Shown here: positions 14,563-51,217 of the stretch, piece by piece | How the letters are laid out: the number at the start of each line of letters is the position of its first letter | How positions within the stretch are numbered: position 1 is the stretch's first letter | From: an uncultured delta proteobacterium | GTDB taxonomy: Bacteria > Desulfobacterota > Binatia > UBA9968 | Direction: 5' to 3' | DNA: 64,000 nucleotides | NCBI GenBank assembly: GCA_963737905.1 | Contig: CAVTUQ010000004.1 | Location: forward strand, 28,206-92,205 | Made by a program: the position numbers and the translations under genes | The notes under the pieces: generated by a model | Seen by the model: only the letters and a program-made list of their open reading frames with translations | What the model was told of the DNA's origin: nothing | The model's database searches: none

Positions 14563-14644
14563 TGACTGCAATTTAAAATCGACAGAGCGAGCTCAAGAGA
14601 CATGGGCGACAGATCACTCCAGCTCGAACTTTTGAAAAATCGTC

Positions 14645-14677
14645 TTGAACGATTTGAACTTTTTGAACGGCTTGAAC
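14645..14677. repeat. tandem nonamer array, 4 x (NNN)TTGAAC in exact 9-bp phase
   Basis: TTGAAC at 14645, 14654, 14663, 14672. Ends 7 nt from the stop (14685-14687) of the minus-strand gene. Confidence 0.8.
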
Positions 14678-14684
14678 CGATTAG

Positions 14685-15533
14685 TTATTCCCCCGCGTAG
14701 TACTTTCTTGCCCACGCCGCGATATCCCCACGCCGGGCAAACCAGACATCTTTGTGGCCCTTGGCGTATTTGATGATCTGCTCGAACGTATCGATAGCTG
14801 GGACGCGTGAGCTCAAGTAGCCGTGCGTGATCACGTTCATCATGGTGGGATTTTCCGGTCCAATCTTGTAGCGGTAATCAAACTCATCTTTGAACTTCTC
14901 AAAAAAGTCGTGACGCGTGCCTTCCTCCTGCATCCGGTGATCGTTGATCGTGTACTGATGCGGGATCATGATAAGCATTTTGTCGCCGATCTTGATCGGA
15001 TAGGGCATTTCATCGTCGTGGTAGTCGCAGTTATAGAGCAGACCCGCCTCAAGATTCAGCTCCAGAGTGTTATCTGTGGAGCGGACACCCGGTGAAGACC
15101 AGCCGGTGGGACGTTCGCCAGTGAGTTTCGTGATCGCTTCGACAGTCTTGAAGACATTTTCCCGCTCCTGGTCTCGCGTAAGCATGAAGAGATATTCCCC
15201 CTGATCCCAGCCATGGGCGACCATCTCGTGGCCGCGGCCATGCGCATACTTCACGAGATCGGGCCAGTATTCGCAAGTGAGACCATTAATCGGCATGCTC
15301 ACTTTCAGATCGTACTTGTCGCAAATGTCGAGGAGCCGCCTTACGCCGATTTTCCCGCCAAAATCTCTGAACGTCTCCGTGGAATAGTCGTGCTTGCATA
15401 GTGCATTGGCCGGTAATGGTGACTGCAGGGCTCCGCCACGTGACGGTTTGTTTCTGTCCCAGCATTCGAAAGCAATGCCGAGCACGAACGCGATCCTTGC
15501 ATTGTTGGGCCACTTGAAAGGTTGCTGAACCAT
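14685..15533 (-). CDS. polysaccharide deacetylase family hydrolase
   Basis: 282 aa. WPNNARIAFVLGIAFE and HEMVAHGW motifs. Same family as 6395-7225. Confidence 0.65.
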   Translation of the reverse strand: MVQQPFKWPNNARIAFVLGIAFECWDRNKPSRGGALQSPLPANALCKHDYSTETFRDFGGKIGVRRLLDICDKYDLKVSMPINGLTCEYWPDLVKYAHGRGHEMVAHGWDQGEYLFMLTRDQERENVFKTVEAITKLTGERPTGWSSPGVRSTDNTLELNLEAGLLYNCDYHDDEMPYPIKIGDKMLIMIPHQYTINDHRMQEEGTRHDFFEKFKDEFDYRYKIGPENPTMMNVITHGYLSSRVPAIDTFEQIIKYAKGHKDVWFARRGDIAAWARKYYAGE

Positions 15534-21304: not shown

Positions 21305-21346
21305 TTAAACGGTTTGAACTGTTTGAACGCATTGAGCTGTTTGTGT
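21305..21346. repeat. tandem nonamer array (TTAAAC, TTGAAC, TTGAAC, TTGAGC, TTGTGT; 9-bp phase)
   Basis: Units start at 21305, 21314, 21323, 21332, 21341. Ends 4 nt from the stop of the permease gene at 21351. Confidence 0.75.
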
Positions 21347-24574: not shown

Positions 24575-24607
24575 TTGAACGACTTGAACGTTTGGAACGA
24601 TTTGAAC
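24575..24607. repeat. tandem nonamer array gatTTGAAC gacTTGAAC gttTGGAAC gatTTGAAC
   Basis: Hexamers start at 24575, 24584, 24593, 24602. Ends 10 nt from the stop of the gene at 24618. Confidence 0.8.
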
Positions 24608-29066: not shown

Positions 29067-29112
29067 TCGTTTCTCGTGACCATTCACGAACACGAATCAC
29101 GAACACGAAAAG
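29055..29112. repeat. inverted array of TCGTGA / TCACGAA heptamer-like units overlapping the stop codon at 29064
   Basis: Left arm cgtgactcgtgatcgtttctcgtgac, right arm tcacgaacacgaatcacgaacacgaaaag. Imperfect hairpin potential. Confidence 0.6.
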
Positions 29113-33724: not shown

Positions 33725-33885
33725 CAGGCTGCTGAAAAGACTCATATGCTTCGTTGCGCTCAATCGCCTCGCTACAGATGGCTTATGGCATATGGCTTAT
33801 AGCGCATGGCTCGTATGGTCAAACTATATGCCATATGCTATCAGCCATACGCGAAGCACAGGGCCTTGAGCAGCCTGCAAACCGA
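33721..33885. repeat. composite palindromic intergenic element: inverted arms flanking ATGGCTYRT micro-repeats
   Basis: Left arm TTAGCAGGCTGCTGAAAAG 33721-33739 overlaps stop 33722-33724. Right arm CTTGAGCAGCCTGCAAACCGA 33865-33885. ATGGCTTAT at 33778 and 33792, ATGGCTCGT at 33806, inverted GCCAT units at 33829-33848. Confidence 0.7.
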
Positions 33886-47907: not shown

Positions 47908-47940
47908 TTGAACGACTGCAACGTTTGGAACGGCTGGAAC
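47908..47940. repeat. tandem nonamer array ggcTTGAAC gacTGCAAC gttTGGAAC ggcTGGAAC
   Basis: Hexamers start at 47908, 47917, 47926, 47935. Same unit order as 24575-24607. Ends 15 nt from the stop of the gene at 47956. Confidence 0.75.
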
Positions 47941-49704: not shown

Positions 49705-49784
49705 AAATACCTCCTCGACGATTATTGACTTGAACAGCGACCGAGGACCGAGTCCCCTTCGCTAATGGGCAATGCGCCTCTACA

Positions 49785-49867
49785 GTTCAAAGTTCAAGGT
49801 TCAAAGGGGGAGGGGGGATAAATACCTTGAACCTGGAACGTTGAACTTTTGAACGGCCCTTTGGGCC
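49785..49867. repeat. inverted array: 3 x GTTCAA (7-bp phase), G-rich spacer, 4 x T(T/G)GAAC, plus GGCCC-TTT-GGGCC hairpin abutting the stop
   Basis: GTTCAA at 49785, 49792, 49799. TTGAAC/TGGAAC at 49827, 49834, 49841, 49849. Hairpin at 49855-49867. Stop codon at 49868-49870. Confidence 0.75.
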
Positions 49868-50956
49868 CTAGTGAACGGTGGCCGACTGAGACGCCGCCTG
49901 TAACGGCTGTGGAATTTCCATGTCGTAGAGCTTTGCCACGTTGGTGCAAACAAGTTTCCTGCGCACGTCTGCCGGCAAGTGCCCCAGGTCGCGATCGATA
50001 TATTTTTTCGACTCCGGCCATGTGGAATTCCCGTGGGGATAATCGTTGGACCACATACAGTTGTCCTGACCCCACCATTCGAAACTATGGCCCGCCGCGG
50101 TGTCGCGGAAGAACGTCCCATAGACCTGTCGGTTGAAATATTCGCTGGGGTTTTTCGTGATCGGCGGAGGATTCACGCCTTTGAACCTGTTGTAATAATA
50201 ATCCCACTGCTGGAGCATGAACGGCATCCATCCGATCTCATTCTCGACGCTGACGAACCTGAGCTTGGGATATCGATCCAAGACTCCGTAGAAAATCAGT
50301 TCAAAAAACGCATCGATGATTTCCTTGAGCTTCAGATTCACGCTGCCCCGATAGGCCTCGACGCCTGTTCGCTTGTTACCGAACACGGTTTCCTTGTGGT
50401 AGCCATGCCCGGTGAGGATATGCAGATTCACCGGCATGTTGAGATCCTGGGAAGCCGCCCAGAACTTATTGTAATGCTCCGAATGAAACGGTAGGTCCGG
50501 ATGTGGCGCCTGCCAGATGATCGATCCCTTGAGACCGGCCTTCGCGCAACGCTCCAGCTCCTTTACCGCCGCGTCGATGTCATAAACCGAGATCGCGCCG
50601 ATACCAATCAAACGATTGGGAGCAACCTTACAATACTCAAACAACCAATCGTTGTACGCTCGGAAACAGGCCTCTTGAAGCTTCGCGTCGTCCATGGCGA
50701 AGTGCGGCAGCAGGTTGGTCGGGTAAAGCACCTCGGCGCTGAGCCCGTCGGTTTCCATCTCCTTGATTCGGCAATTTGGATCCGACCCACCTGGATGCGT
50801 CTGAAAGCTTTCTCCCACTTTGAGCTGGGGAAAAACCGGAGCTTGTTCTCGGAACGACGGCGCAACTCGCTCCTTCACGGTGTTGGGTGGTTCCATCACG
50901 TGGGAGTCCGAAGAAATCAGCACCTCACAACCTGCATTATTTCCATTGCCAGCCAT
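49868..50956 (-). CDS. amidohydrolase_2 family protein (ACMSD-like decarboxylase/hydrolase)
   Basis: 362 aa. SSDSHVMEP metal motif, NLHILTGHG, SNDYPHGNSTWP. Confidence 0.75.
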   Translation of the reverse strand: MAGNGNNAGCEVLISSDSHVMEPPNTVKERVAPSFREQAPVFPQLKVGESFQTHPGGSDPNCRIKEMETDGLSAEVLYPTNLLPHFAMDDAKLQEACFRAYNDWLFEYCKVAPNRLIGIGAISVYDIDAAVKELERCAKAGLKGSIIWQAPHPDLPFHSEHYNKFWAASQDLNMPVNLHILTGHGYHKETVFGNKRTGVEAYRGSVNLKLKEIIDAFFELIFYGVLDRYPKLRFVSVENEIGWMPFMLQQWDYYYNRFKGVNPPPITKNPSEYFNRQVYGTFFRDTAAGHSFEWWGQDNCMWSNDYPHGNSTWPESKKYIDRDLGHLPADVRRKLVCTNVAKLYDMEIPQPLQAASQSATVH

Positions 50957-51156
50957 AAAATCTTCCTCCTTTAGCCATATGTATATGGTTACCTATTCAT
51001 TAACCGCAAAAAACTCAAAGTTCGCAAAGTTTTCGAAAAAACTTCTCTTTGTGTTTTATGCGTTCTTTGCGGTCAAGTTTCTCCTCAATCCTAGCGACTA
51101 TTGCAGGTCTACCACCACAGACCTCAACGGGTCAACCGGGCGCGAGCACGCTCACA

Positions 51157-51217
51157 GTTTCGAGTCTCGCGTTTCGAGTTTCGTGTTTTAAACCCGAGAC
51201 TAGAAACCCGAAACACG
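51157..51217. repeat. inverted array of GTTTCGA heptamer-like units
   Basis: Left arm GTTTCGAGTCTCGCGTTTCGAGTTTCGTGTTTT, right arm AAACCCGAGACTAGAAACCCGAAACACG. Related GTTTCGA units at 58263-58297. Confidence 0.65.

Follow-up and report, generated by a model that had tools for sequence, protein, structure and literature searches.

Arrays of short tandem repeats dispersed between bacterial genes form a class that is already in print, comprising the GGGNATC heptamers of Xanthomonas and Nostoc, the TAACTGA repeats of Beggiatoa and the short tandemly repeated repetitive (STRR) sequences of cyanobacteria. For TAACTGA, binding of a post-transcriptional regulator has been proposed, with S1, Csp and CsrA as candidates (MacGregor 2015, PMC4679880), while for STRR a part in the stability of transcripts or in translational coupling has been suggested (PMC2670836). 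Tandem heptamers are also found within the 23S rRNA of Coxiella burnetii, in its intervening sequence (IVS), an element regarded as selfish that carries an S23p open reading frame and a 28-bp stem and is cut by RNase III (Warrier et al. 2016, PMC4990558). S23p itself forms a toroid of five identical subunits, a homopentamer (PMC4990558). In the likewise pentameric Avd, all five protomers grip an RNA stem-loop, with flipped-out bases in the crevices between protomers (bioRxiv 10.1101/2023.10.23.563531). In a full-text literature search, neither GTTCAA/TTGAAC arrays nor a tie between heptamer repeats and S23p or Avd turned up in any paper.

TTGAAC arrays in the analyzed window

The window, a stretch of 64,000 nucleotides, had been predicted to hold a dispersed family of TTGAAC nonamer arrays, one with four perfect hexamers in 9-bp phase and four further copies, each 4-15 nt from the stop codon of a minus-strand gene. 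All of these are present (Table 1), and the gaps to the stop codons at 14685, 21351, 24618, 47956 and 49868 are 7, 4, 10, 15 and 13 nt, respectively. TTGAAC-N3-TTGAAC with at most one mismatch matches nine times in the window, against a mean of 0.33 after shuffling, and none of 100 shuffles reached nine. There is no gene inside any of the five copies.

Table 1. Coordinates and composition of the repeat features in the window and of the gene-bearing cassette on contig C7.
Feature	Position	Strand	Composition
Array 1 (single)	14624-14677	-	perfect TTGAAC hexamers at 14645, 14654, 14663 and 14672, exact 9-bp phase
Array 2 (single, partly degenerate)	21305-21346	-	TTAAAC, TTGAAC, TTGAAC, TTGAGC, TTGTGT
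Array 3 (single)	24575-24607	-	TTGAAC gac TTGAAC gtt TGGAAC gat TTGAAC
Array 4 (single, degenerate)	47908-47940	-	TTGAAC gac TGCAAC gtt TGGAAC ggc TGGAAC
Inverted pair, left arm	49784-49806	+	period 7: GTTCAAa GTTCAAg GTTCAAa (GTTCAA x3)
Inverted pair, right arm	49827-49854	+	period 7: TTGAAC c TGGAAC g TTGAAC tt TTGAAC
GTTCAA cassette, first arm	C7:222934-222966		inverted relative to the other arm
GTTCAA cassette, gene	C7:222986-223423		
GTTCAA cassette, second arm	C7:223420-223452		inverted relative to the other arm
Degraded second cassette copy	C7:225573-226065		

Read on the minus strand, array 1 is GTTCAAgcc GTTCAAaaa GTTCAAatc GTTCAAgac, with degenerate units further inward, and it follows a polysaccharide-deacetylase-like gene (14685-15533, minus strand). 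Array 2 lies within a Dpp/Opp-like operon, between the stop of an OppC-like permease gene and the start of an SBP_bac_5 gene (21233). Array 3 follows an alpha/beta-hydrolase gene and precedes the start of an aminotransferase gene (24550) by 24 nt. Array 4, which retains a single perfect hexamer, follows a ThDP-enzyme gene, and the inverted pair fills the gap between an amidohydrolase gene (stop 49868) and a ThDP-enzyme gene (start 49704).

The RNA of the pair (49775-49870, minus strand) is predicted to fold with -35.3 kcal/mol (z = -4.2), the left arm pairing with the right arm. Single arrays have no significant fold alone (z = -0.7). The original prediction had denied the arrays a stem plus U-run; this holds for the single arrays and for the U-run, but not for the pairs, for which a stem is predicted. 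Its exclusion of CRISPR is upheld, as contiguous units of 7-9 nt, four per locus, differ from repeats of 28-37 nt with unique spacers of similar size, and so is that of a riboswitch, no Rfam family matching anywhere in the window.

Genome-wide census and anatomy of the arrays

TTGAAC/GTTCAA is the largest of about 20 families of short tandem-repeat arrays in the intergenic gaps of the genome; TTTCGA, CTTTGC, GAGGAT and CACGAA are other abundant ones. With a minimum of three units, 323 arrays were counted at approximately 243 loci, while the reversed-motif control yielded one, confirming a genuine dispersed family rather than low complexity. Arrays of three, four, five, six and seven units number 54, 229, 38, 1 and 1, respectively. 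The period is mostly 9 (151 pure arrays) or 7 (83 pure arrays), and occasionally 8. The consensus is (GTTCAA-R-N-C)4-GT, the array being followed by G in 87% and then by T in 73% of cases, which in RNA reads (GUUCAANNC)4GU. GTTCCA is the commonest variant of the hexamer.

Neighboring spacers are identical less often than expected, both at period 9 (4 of 293, versus 28) and at period 7 (15 of 157, versus 46), and no position-specific pattern was found among the spacer triplets of the genome's arrays. Since orthologous arrays vary in spacers, period and unit number as well, the earlier suggestion that the arrays are copies of one element of roughly 36 bp had to be abandoned. Facing arms are frequent: GTTCAA precedes TTGAAC at 64 loci, against 10 in the reverse order, and paired arms nearly always have equal periods. 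Complementarity between the spacers of facing arms is not above chance, and at one position it is below chance.

The repeat brackets a PF05635 gene

On contig C7, two inverted GTTCAA arms enclose a gene located directly after lexA, the cassette lying between lexA and an imuA-like ORF (Table 1). We refer to this gene-bearing copy as the reference, as a label only, implying no direction of descent. The encoded protein of 145 aa belongs to PF05635/TIGR02436 (S23p, '23S rRNA intervening-sequence protein', Avd-like), a family of four-helix bundles, and matches XCC0516 (PDB 2GSC, an entry of five chains; E = 4e-14).

All 11 PF05635 genes of the genome lie between inverted short-tandem arrays, an arrangement that an automated flank criterion assigns to just 105 of 6209 ORFs (1.7%). 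The motifs differ: two of these genes have GTTCAA/TTGAAC arms, and the arrays of other paralogues include GCCATAAG and GGAGCA. Bracketing of PF05635 genes by a repeat of their own was also observed in one cyanobacterial, one Chitinophagaceae, one Vicinamibacterales, one Fluviicola and one AT-rich genome, each other paralogue having its own 7-9-nt repeat in this genome and in four other phyla. In TAACTGA-rich cyanobacterial genomes, (TCAGTAA or TCAGTTA)n is found upstream and (TAACTGA)n downstream of PF05635 genes, and in Pleurocapsa one such gene is bordered by (GGGGATT)6 on one side and (AATCCCC)5 on the other.

Homologues of at least 63% identity, from nine other genera, form one clade and all have GTTCAA or GTTCCA arms, whereas those of at most 56% identity have other arm motifs. 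This match of clade to motif is not independent proof of recognition, because shared descent at one conserved locus could give the same motif. One genome (G013) has 54 TGGAAC versus 24 TTGAAC arrays, which fits a switch from GTTCAA to GTTCCA together with the gene, but two others (G004 and G015) do not fit. A GTTCAA-flanked PF05635 gene was not found in the assembled contigs of four genomes with 25-135 GTTCAA arrays each (G006, G010, G017 and G021), all of them metagenome genomes broken into 260-790 contigs; in G001 the gene lies at a contig end. Even so, arrays may persist without the gene. For the TTTCGA, CTTTGC, GAGGAT and CACGAA families, no PF05635 gene was found in the 87%-complete assembly.

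A model for the arrays

We propose that the TTGAAC arrays represent the arms, without the gene, of a family of IVS-like cassettes and serve as cognate sites for a pentameric four-helix-bundle protein, a reading of the sequence data to which we assign an even chance of being right. The complete element, an inverted pair, reads (GTTCAA-R-N-C)4-GT ... loop ... AC-(G-N-Y-TTGAAC)4, with the PF05635 gene in the loop of the reference copy, and some 240 further loci have arms lacking the gene, paired or single. Such arms have been gained, lost and reshaped in the short intergenic spacers throughout a bacterial family. The homopentameric protein may recognize the repeat units at about one per protomer, which would account for four units plus a partial fifth. 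Recognition would most probably take place on RNA, in which a pair gives a stem interrupted at regular intervals by internal loops. Pairs might then behave like REP/BIME elements or the stems of rRNA IVSs, in RNase III processing, in protection of transcript ends or in coupling of neighboring cistrons.

Against the model, a protein of this kind would have to accommodate periods of 7, 8, 9 and 10 alike. Singles cannot form a hairpin, and the two orientations occur about equally often in the mRNA sense, which is hard to reconcile with a protein that reads a single-stranded RNA motif.

Distribution among relatives

The arrays occur in 23 of the 24 genera of the family and are essentially absent from two sister families; a control pattern gave none. 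Spread of the GTTCAA-RNC array across phyla was considered and rejected: the records in question, labeled Binatia, Deltaproteobacteria, Thermodesulfobacteriota, Verrucomicrobiia and Chloroflexota, are 70-89% identical in nucleotide sequence to this genome over kilobases and therefore represent one lineage under inconsistent labels. Distinct GTTCAA nonamer families exist in Chitinophagaceae and Vicinamibacterales.

A comparison of orthologous intergenic regions, suggested along with the original prediction, gave a divided answer. Arrays at 13 of 26 orthologous sites are common to relatives, but others are missing, among them array 2, whose orthologous spacer in G001 and G002 is just 14-19 bp long and lacks an array. 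At the site of array 1, G001, a member of the same genus, has an orthologous array with different spacers, and at that of array 3, G010 and G024 have different repeat families. Where sites are orthologous, identity amounts to 89.8% in hexamer columns, 56% in spacers, 35.5% in other intergenic sequence and 68% in coding flanks. The same site can switch between periods 9 and 7 and gain or lose units.

These patterns bear on the strongest alternative, which we nevertheless consider unlikely: that the arrays are selfish, non-functional DNA, left behind in MITE-like form by a mobile, IVS-like cassette and tolerated solely in spacers within or behind transcription units, with hexamers kept for a mobilizing or gene-conversion machinery and not for the host. 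Mobility of IVSs has long been proposed (PMC4990558). Consistent with such an origin, presence varies between species of one genus, as at array 2; one site (L034) shows a clean 40-nt presence/absence between relatives; the lexA-imuA spacer contains, according to genus, a GTTCAA cassette or else a hairpin of GAGGAT or of CACGAA; and arrays are found inside operons and even in frame within one ORF, giving (LN[DE])n on translation. On the other hand, half of the orthologous sites keep their arrays across genera, with hexamers more conserved than coding flanks, and spacers differ everywhere, which leaves no master copy. By the criteria for MITEs, copies are not near-identical, as spacers and loops differ, and the flanks viewed gave no sign of a target-site duplication. 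Nor is there a linked transposase: PF13366 nuclease cassettes are absent from this genome, and the occurrence of Y1 transposases does not follow that of the arrays, G024 having most arrays and a weak hit.

Placement relative to genes

About 86% of the array loci are intergenic and 35 of 243 are mid-ORF. Neighboring genes are co-directional at 148 loci, convergent at 38 and divergent at 19, the last being depleted relative to an expectation of 33-49. Of the single arrays located between co-directional genes, 47 have GTTCAA in the mRNA sense, at a median of 10 nt past the stop, and 44 have TTGAAC, at a median of 28 nt ahead of the next start. Strand counts relative to flanking genes are balanced (54 versus 54; 45 versus 40). 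The mRNA order put forward at the outset, stop, short gap, (GUUCAANNN)n, thus describes the GTTCAA-sense singles but not the equally numerous TTGAAC-sense singles before starts. The census borne in mind in the original prediction confirmed placement relative to gene ends, but revealed no exclusive post-stop bias. The post-stop reading is half of the picture, as the opposite orientation is equally frequent just upstream of starts. The underlying unit is the inverted pair, and singles sit where either arm would.

It is improbable, in the light of this placement, that (GUUCAANNN)n acts as a 3'-UTR RNA element just past stops, read by a single-strand RNA-binding factor or serving 3'-end formation or decay. 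All five window copies do lie past a stop in the GUUCAA sense, as do the GTTCAA-sense singles genome-wide, and the published TAACTGA and GGGNATC repeats are placed similarly (PMC4679880; PMC4692102). The opposite-sense singles near starts and the even strand counts argue against it; moreover, relatives have cistrons only 14-19 bp apart at a place where arrays occur, so that a terminator there would cut the operon, and single arrays lack both a U-run and a fold.

Equally improbable in our view is that the arrays are double-stranded DNA sites, that is, tandem operator-like sites for a nucleoid-associated or roadblock protein, comparable to MetJ metboxes or the heptads of omega protein, insulating transcription units from one another. 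Orientation is independent of transcription but fixed relative to the nearest gene end, unit number is fixed, and ribbon-helix-helix proteins bind contiguous 7-8-bp repeats, all of which would suit such sites. Against them, the same hexamer occurs at periods of 7, 8, 9 and 10, so that each unit would be rotated on the helix by over 100 degrees from one period to another; the equal periods within a pair are as expected of mutual pairing; divergent promoter regions are depleted of arrays; and the linked protein family binds RNA in the one case studied, Avd. Neutral microsatellites arising from replication slippage, for which one could cite unit numbers that vary between relatives (two versus four at L058) and the many period-7 to period-9 repeats found by TRF in the genome, are very improbable and already contradicted by the census: unit number peaks sharply at four, identical adjacent spacers are 3-7 times rarer than expected, the reversed motif gives 1 array versus 322, hexamers are 90% conserved versus 35% for other intergenic sequence, and arrays are confined to one family, the control pattern giving 0.

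Several specific candidates were rejected as well. The RAYT/REP model fails on Y1 (PF01797), which is present in array-free sister families and weakly present in the array-richest genome, G024. An intrinsic terminator is discounted by singles without a fold, by the missing U-run after the stem of the window's pair and in the other spacers viewed, and by arrays between cistrons of an operon. Judged by the features of a tRNA T-loop, mimicry (G-TTCAA-NN-C) was dropped, GTTCCA being the commonest variant and the period-7 form lacking the closing pair. The LexA box of the alphaproteobacterial type is GTTC-N7-GTTC; its spacing, like that of an ECF-sigma or -35-like promoter, misfits period 7 or 9, and one array in two is directed towards the end of a gene. 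A Rho rut site is incompatible with an orientation that is not strand-specific and a sequence that is not C-rich.

Significance

GTTCAA-type arrays occupy hundreds of intergenic loci per genome in this lineage, and comparable arrays are found in Xanthomonas, Nostoc and Beggiatoa, among others. The proposed model supplies a candidate partner for such repeats, a small protein family whose one studied member, Avd, is an RNA-binding pentamer, and a possible role for the widespread PF05635, which includes the ORFs of rRNA intervening sequences. A broader version is speculative, and we think it unlikely: STRR, GGGNATC, TAACTGA and GTTCAA arrays in general might be cognate sites of pentameric S23p/Avd-like proteins, each paralogue reading its own 7-9-nt unit at about one per protomer, which would explain the preference of such arrays for four to five units. 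The GTTCAA-specific protein would be encoded inside a lexA/imuA-like/imuB-like cluster, so that DNA damage could switch on a protein acting on several hundred intergenic hairpins. If true, this would explain arrays that have been a puzzle since 1990. Tractable strains for the hypothesis are Xanthomonas campestris, which offers XCC0516 and GGGAATC, and Nostoc PCC 7120, which offers four-helix-bundle genes together with heptamers.

Comparison with known systems

The GGGNATC/GGGGAYT heptamers of Xanthomonas and Nostoc resemble the GTTCAA arrays in occurring as hundreds of dispersed short tandem arrays, enriched where ORFs are aligned and depleted where they diverge (Rehm et al. 2015, PMC4692102). 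The placement rule is the same, with the sense strand at most 50 bp past a stop or the antisense strand at most 50 bp before a start; convergent inverted pairs are likewise common (70-75 per genome), and between species array type is kept while length varies (PMC4692102). Both share a preference for about four units, with exactly four seen here in 229 of 323 arrays. In contrast to the near-perfect heptamers (PMC4692102), GTTCAA units combine a conserved hexamer with one to three variable spacer bases, and their core lacks G-tracts. The quadruplex explanation for the four-unit preference therefore cannot apply here, and it is not general, since this preference, the placement and the inverted pairing recur with a core that is not G-rich. 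That paper (PMC4692102) makes no gene link, whereas the GTTCAA motif brackets a PF05635 gene.

The TAACTGA direct repeats of Beggiatoaceae, Cyanobacteria and Bacteroidetes, grouped in sets of two to six, of which a genome has about 170, are similarly intergenic, adjoin start codons and show a patchy phylogenetic spread, but have another motif and almost no reported inverted pairs (PMC4679880). As TAACTGA-type arrays flank PF05635 genes in cyanobacteria, the gene link seems to apply to them also. Cyanobacterial STRR are likewise tandem 7-bp intergenic repeats, with possible hairpins between operon genes such as hupS/hupL (PMC2670836); they belong to another lineage and have another motif, period 9 dominates in GTTCAA, and the texts consulted state no gene link for STRR.

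In the 23S rRNA IVS of Coxiella burnetii and Leptospira, an S23p/PF05635 ORF is enclosed by terminal inverted repeats, which together make a long stem, and in Coxiella three GACAGAT heptamers plus a degenerate fourth, in strain-variable copy number, precede the ORF (PMC4990558). Unlike the IVS, the GTTCAA cassette is located between protein-coding genes (lexA and an imuA-like ORF) and not in rRNA, has arms of 4 x 9 nt and is accompanied by hundreds of gene-less arms over the genome. REP/BIME elements, finally, are palindromes with a GTAG or CGTC tag, neither of which is seen in the phased tandem consensus of GTTCAA, and the gene they flank encodes a Y1 transposase instead of a four-helix bundle without known catalytic site. 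The analogy drawn with them in the original prediction is nonetheless fair: both are high-copy extragenic elements that occur singly and in inverted pairs, within transcription units or behind them, with one gene copy flanked by repeats and a presence that varies between species (PMC3733652).

Repeat arrays in the window and in the genome

The TTGAAC arrays that the original prediction described as a dispersed family are real: all five copies are present in the window, and a two-unit pattern with one mismatch allowed matches nine times there, against 0.33 expected from shuffles. The minus-strand ORF to the right of each array has its stop codon 4-15 nt from the array's end. The neighbouring genes are ordinary ones (polysaccharide-deacetylase-like, OppC-like and OppB-like permeases, SBP_bac_5 binding protein, aminotransferase, alpha/beta hydrolase, ThDP enzyme, amidohydrolase), and an Rfam search of the whole window returned no match.

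Location of repeat arrays and associated features. Coordinates without prefix are those of the window; C numbers are contigs of the genome under study.
Location	Feature	Remarks
14624-14677	TTGAAC array 1	four perfect hexamers in 9-bp phase (14645, 14654, 14663, 14672)
21305-21346	TTGAAC array 2	
24575-24607	TTGAAC array 3	
47908-47940	TTGAAC array 4	
49784-49854	inverted pair, period 7	arms 49784-49806 and 49827-49854
49855-49867	perfect small hairpin, GGCCC-TTT-GGGCC	adjoins amidohydrolase stop, immediately outside right arm of the pair; predicted to form independently
29084-29109, 33778-33811	short arrays (TRF)	CACGAA (27 genome-wide) and ATGGCTT/GCCATA-type (27-33)
51004-51072, 51157-51217	inverted GTTTCGA/TCGAAAC heptamer arrays	behind binding-protein gene; TTTCGA family, 54 arrays in genome, mostly 4-5 units
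near 51157-51217	CCGCAAA/TTTGCGG repeats	family of ~48 arrays
C24:7486 and C4:77990 (window 49785)	near-identical intergenic regions	include arrays
C16:53700 and C44:36138	near-identical intergenic regions	include arrays
C46:10522 and C25:356104	near-identical intergenic regions	include arrays
C7:222929-223462	lexA-imuA spacer	GTTCAA cassette with gene
C7:225251-225292	array in imuB-like ORF, outside window	four units, period 9, TTGAAC, in frame; translates LNELNDLNDLN
C9:258898-259209	PF05635 gene of GCCATA family	
C17:36600-37600	'SILARSEERALR' and 'FQSSPAPKSGRY' recurring at regular intervals in ORF translations	looks like a longer-period DNA repeat array, possibly CRISPR

Hexamers were called with one mismatch allowed and chained at 6-10 nt spacing throughout the assembly (6.7 Mb, 46 contigs, 54.5% G+C; window at C4:28206-92205). 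This yielded 323 arrays, 229 of them with exactly four units, while a reversed-motif control gave 1 array versus 322. The period is purely 9 in 151 arrays and purely 7 in 83, the remainder being mixed with period 8. The consensus reads (GTTCAA-R-N-C)4, then G (87%) and T (73%); the outer boundary is sharp, and inward a fifth unit decays. The arrays had been proposed to be copies of a roughly 36-bp element; this is not borne out: spacer triplets come from one pool at every unit position, so the arrays do not derive from copying a single master. Identical neighbouring spacers are much rarer than expected (4/293 versus 28 expected; 15/157 versus 46).

Pairing and placement

Among 243 loci in total are 164 single arrays, 64 pairs ordered GTTCAAx4 ... 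TTGAACx4 and 10 pairs in reverse order. Arm periods within a pair are nearly always equal (7/7 at 34 loci, 9/9 at 31, few mixed). The window pair has a predicted fold of -35.3 kcal/mol (z = -4.2); array 1, which is single, has none (z = -0.7). Complementarity of facing spacers in pairs is not above chance, so that a stem would alternate 6-bp helices with small internal loops.

Some 86% of loci lie between genes and 35 of the 243 mid-ORF, and divergent spacers are depleted (19 observed versus 33-49 expected). Recording strand and stop distance between co-directional genes, we found two equally common classes of single arrays: 47 with GTTCAA in the mRNA sense, a median of 10 nt past the stop, and 44 of the opposite sense (TTGAAC), a median of 28 nt ahead of the next start. 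The proposed order of stop codon, short gap and array on the mRNA thus describes all five window copies, which happen to be the stop-proximal arm, but as a rule it captures one half of a symmetric architecture: stop, few nucleotides, GTTCAA arm, loop, TTGAAC arm, ribosome-binding site, start. Stop proximity largely reflects the very short original length of the spacers that the elements occupy (14-19 bp in relatives). The suggested analogy to REP elements is apt. An imuB-like orthologue in a relative carries an array at the same position as the in-frame one on C7, indicating that coding sequence can tolerate period-9 arrays.

Lineage distribution and orthologous sites

The family is restricted in lineage. 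A nonamer pattern of three units has 2 to 238 matches in 23 of the 24 genera of the host family, a single match in each of 2 of 5 genomes of one sister family, and none in the 11 genomes of another; a control pattern gave 0 in all genomes scanned. Arrays of period 7 were detected in 15 of these 24 genera. When public genomes were scanned, a GTTCAA array seemed to be shared by several phyla. This was rejected: the loci are 70-89% identical in nucleotide sequence to this genome over kilobases, and on this similarity the records are one lineage that submitters labelled inconsistently, mostly as 'Candidatus Binatia' or 'Deltaproteobacteria'. Separate GTTCAA nonamer families are present in Chitinophagaceae and Vicinamibacterales genomes. 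At eight loci of Chitinophagaceae MAGs there is a different four-unit nonamer array, GTTCAA-WRR x4, preceded by GAGGTTTGN repeats and followed by a conserved ~40-nt tail (GTTGGGGATTTTCGTCTGCCGATGTTGGTGTTATCACC...), apparently part of a longer composite element.

At the site of array 1, one same-genus genome (G001) has an array with differing spacers; array 2 is missing from G001 and from a second same-genus genome, and the site of array 3 holds different repeat families in two other genera. At orthologous spacers, found via flanking genes, both genomes carry an array in 13 of 26 cases. Identity amounts to 89.8% in hexamers, a figure inflated by the help that repeats give the aligner, 56% in spacers, 35.5% in other intergenic columns and 68% in coding flanks. 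Hexamers are thus under constraint or homogenisation, while their surroundings drift. At an orthologous site unit number may vary (2 versus 4), as may the period of a pair (9 in one genome, 7 in another), and entire arrays are cleanly present or absent. The near-identical regions on different contigs, together with an estimated 6.7% contamination, suggest two co-binned close strains or recent duplications.

A PF05635 gene between inverted arrays

On C7 the lexA stop is followed directly by a GTTCAA arm, a ribosome-binding site, a 145-aa ORF, a TTGAAC arm, and imuA-like and imuB-like ORFs, with a second, degraded copy of the GTTCAA cassette downstream of the latter. LexA identity was confirmed by Pfam; the imuA-like and imuB-like ORFs are so named from weak RecA/ImuA and Pol IV similarity alone. 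The 145-aa ORF belongs to PF05635 (E = 3.5e-34) and TIGR02436 'four helix bundle protein', the S23p, Avd-like family, and matches PDB 2GSC, XCC0516 (E = 3.8e-14).

All 11 PF05635 genes of the genome lie between inverted short-tandem arrays, the motif differing by gene (elsewhere GTTGAGR, GCCATAAG, GGAGCA, GGTCAGA, ATTTTCG, GGATTTCG or AGCAGK). Our automated flank criterion is passed by 1.7% of all ORFs and by 54 of 78 genes in a pooled PF05635 sample, more by eye. Homologues at least 63% identical (10 genes, 9 other genera) all carry arms of GTTCAA or GTTCCA, with periods of 7, 8, 9 or 10, and each gene follows lexA or the imuB-like gene; those at most 56% identical have other motifs. In a maximum-likelihood tree, the 13 proteins of the host family with GTTCAA/GTTCCA flanks form one clade, and other motifs are clade-specific too. 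This match is consistent with recognition of repeats by the protein but is not proof of it, because orthologues at one locus inherit their flanks by descent.

The lexA-imuA spacer is a hot spot for repeat elements from different families: it contains the GTTCAA cassette with gene in seven genomes of six genera, a gene-less GAGGAT-type hairpin in one relative and a gene-less CACGAA-type hairpin in another.

Bracketing is not confined to this lineage. Paralogue-specific inverted arrays enclose PF05635 genes in five unrelated genomes: Pleurocapsa, (GGGGATT)6 ... (AATCCCC)5; Vicinamibacterales, a GGTTCA-type pair, with dispersed GTTCAA arrays in the same genome; an AT-rich genome, a GTTCAA/TTGAAC pair; Chitinophagaceae; and Fluviicola. 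In cyanobacteria with hundreds of TAACTGA repeats, the array upstream of PF05635 genes is (TCAGTAA or TCAGTTA)n and the one downstream (TAACTGA)n, in at least three genomic contexts. At five cyanobacterial loci of this kind the last repeat overlaps the start codon of the next gene. Pairing of TCAGTAA with TAACTGA arms would leave a single A-A mismatch in each heptamer.

A TRF census of the genome gave 937 arrays of period 6-10 in ~20 motif families, most with 4-5 units; GTTCAA far outnumbers the others (285, plus 24 GTTCCA). Three expanded families have a PF05635 gene in the assembly (GTTCAA 322, GCCATA 33, GGAGCA 32), the remaining PF05635-linked families comprise scarcely more than the gene's own arms, and several abundant families have no PF05635 gene in the assembly, which is 87% complete.

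Discussion

We consider the chances about even that what the window contains are arms, lacking the gene, of a family of IVS-like cassettes, for which we take the copy in the lexA cluster as reference. A pentameric S23p-like protein would recognise the repeat units, which would account for four units and a partial fifth with no need for quadruplexes, and pairs would form RNA stems, interrupted by loops at regular intervals, that serve processing, protection or coupling. Three observations speak against this reading: a GTTCAA-flanked PF05635 gene was not found in four array-rich, fragmented genomes, both senses are represented among single arms, and several abundant repeat families have no PF05635 gene in the 87%-complete assembly. 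The main rival, that the arrays are purely selfish DNA, would fit the finding that three different families variously occupy the lexA-imuA spacer, but we regard it as rather unlikely, given that hexamers are conserved across genera and that the elements have neither a mobilising enzyme nor copy identity.

The IVS-like reading has a parallel in the Coxiella 23S rRNA intervening sequence (IVS), in which an S23p ORF occurs together with a 28-bp terminal stem, variable-copy tandem heptamers and RNase III excision (Warrier et al. 2016, PMC4990558); S23p is cited there as a homopentameric toroid. Avd, a DGR accessory protein forming a pentameric barrel, has been likened to S23 ribosomal proteins; all five of its protomers contact an RNA stem-loop, with flipped-out bases inserted between protomers (bioRxiv 10.1101/2023.10.23.563531). 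PF05635 genes were previously found between operon genes and termed functionally uncharacterised. Our literature search returned no paper connecting repeat arrays with S23p, and the papers on repeat arrays that we consulted do not mention it.

The repeat class itself is a variant of a kind already in print. GGGNATC heptamer arrays of Xanthomonas and Nostoc prefer four units, are enriched in gaps between aligned ORFs and depleted in divergent ones, and follow the same orientation rule as GTTCAA arrays, with ~70 inverted pairs per genome (Rehm et al. 2015, PMC4692102). Their four-unit preference was attributed to G-quadruplexes, an explanation that GTTCAA arrays remove. For TAACTGA repeats an unidentified post-transcriptional regulator was proposed (MacGregor 2015, PMC4679880), and the hairpin-forming STRR heptamers were left without assigned function (PMC2670836). 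Dispersed arrays, including such published orphan ones, are now linked to a specific small protein family, and the link is testable.
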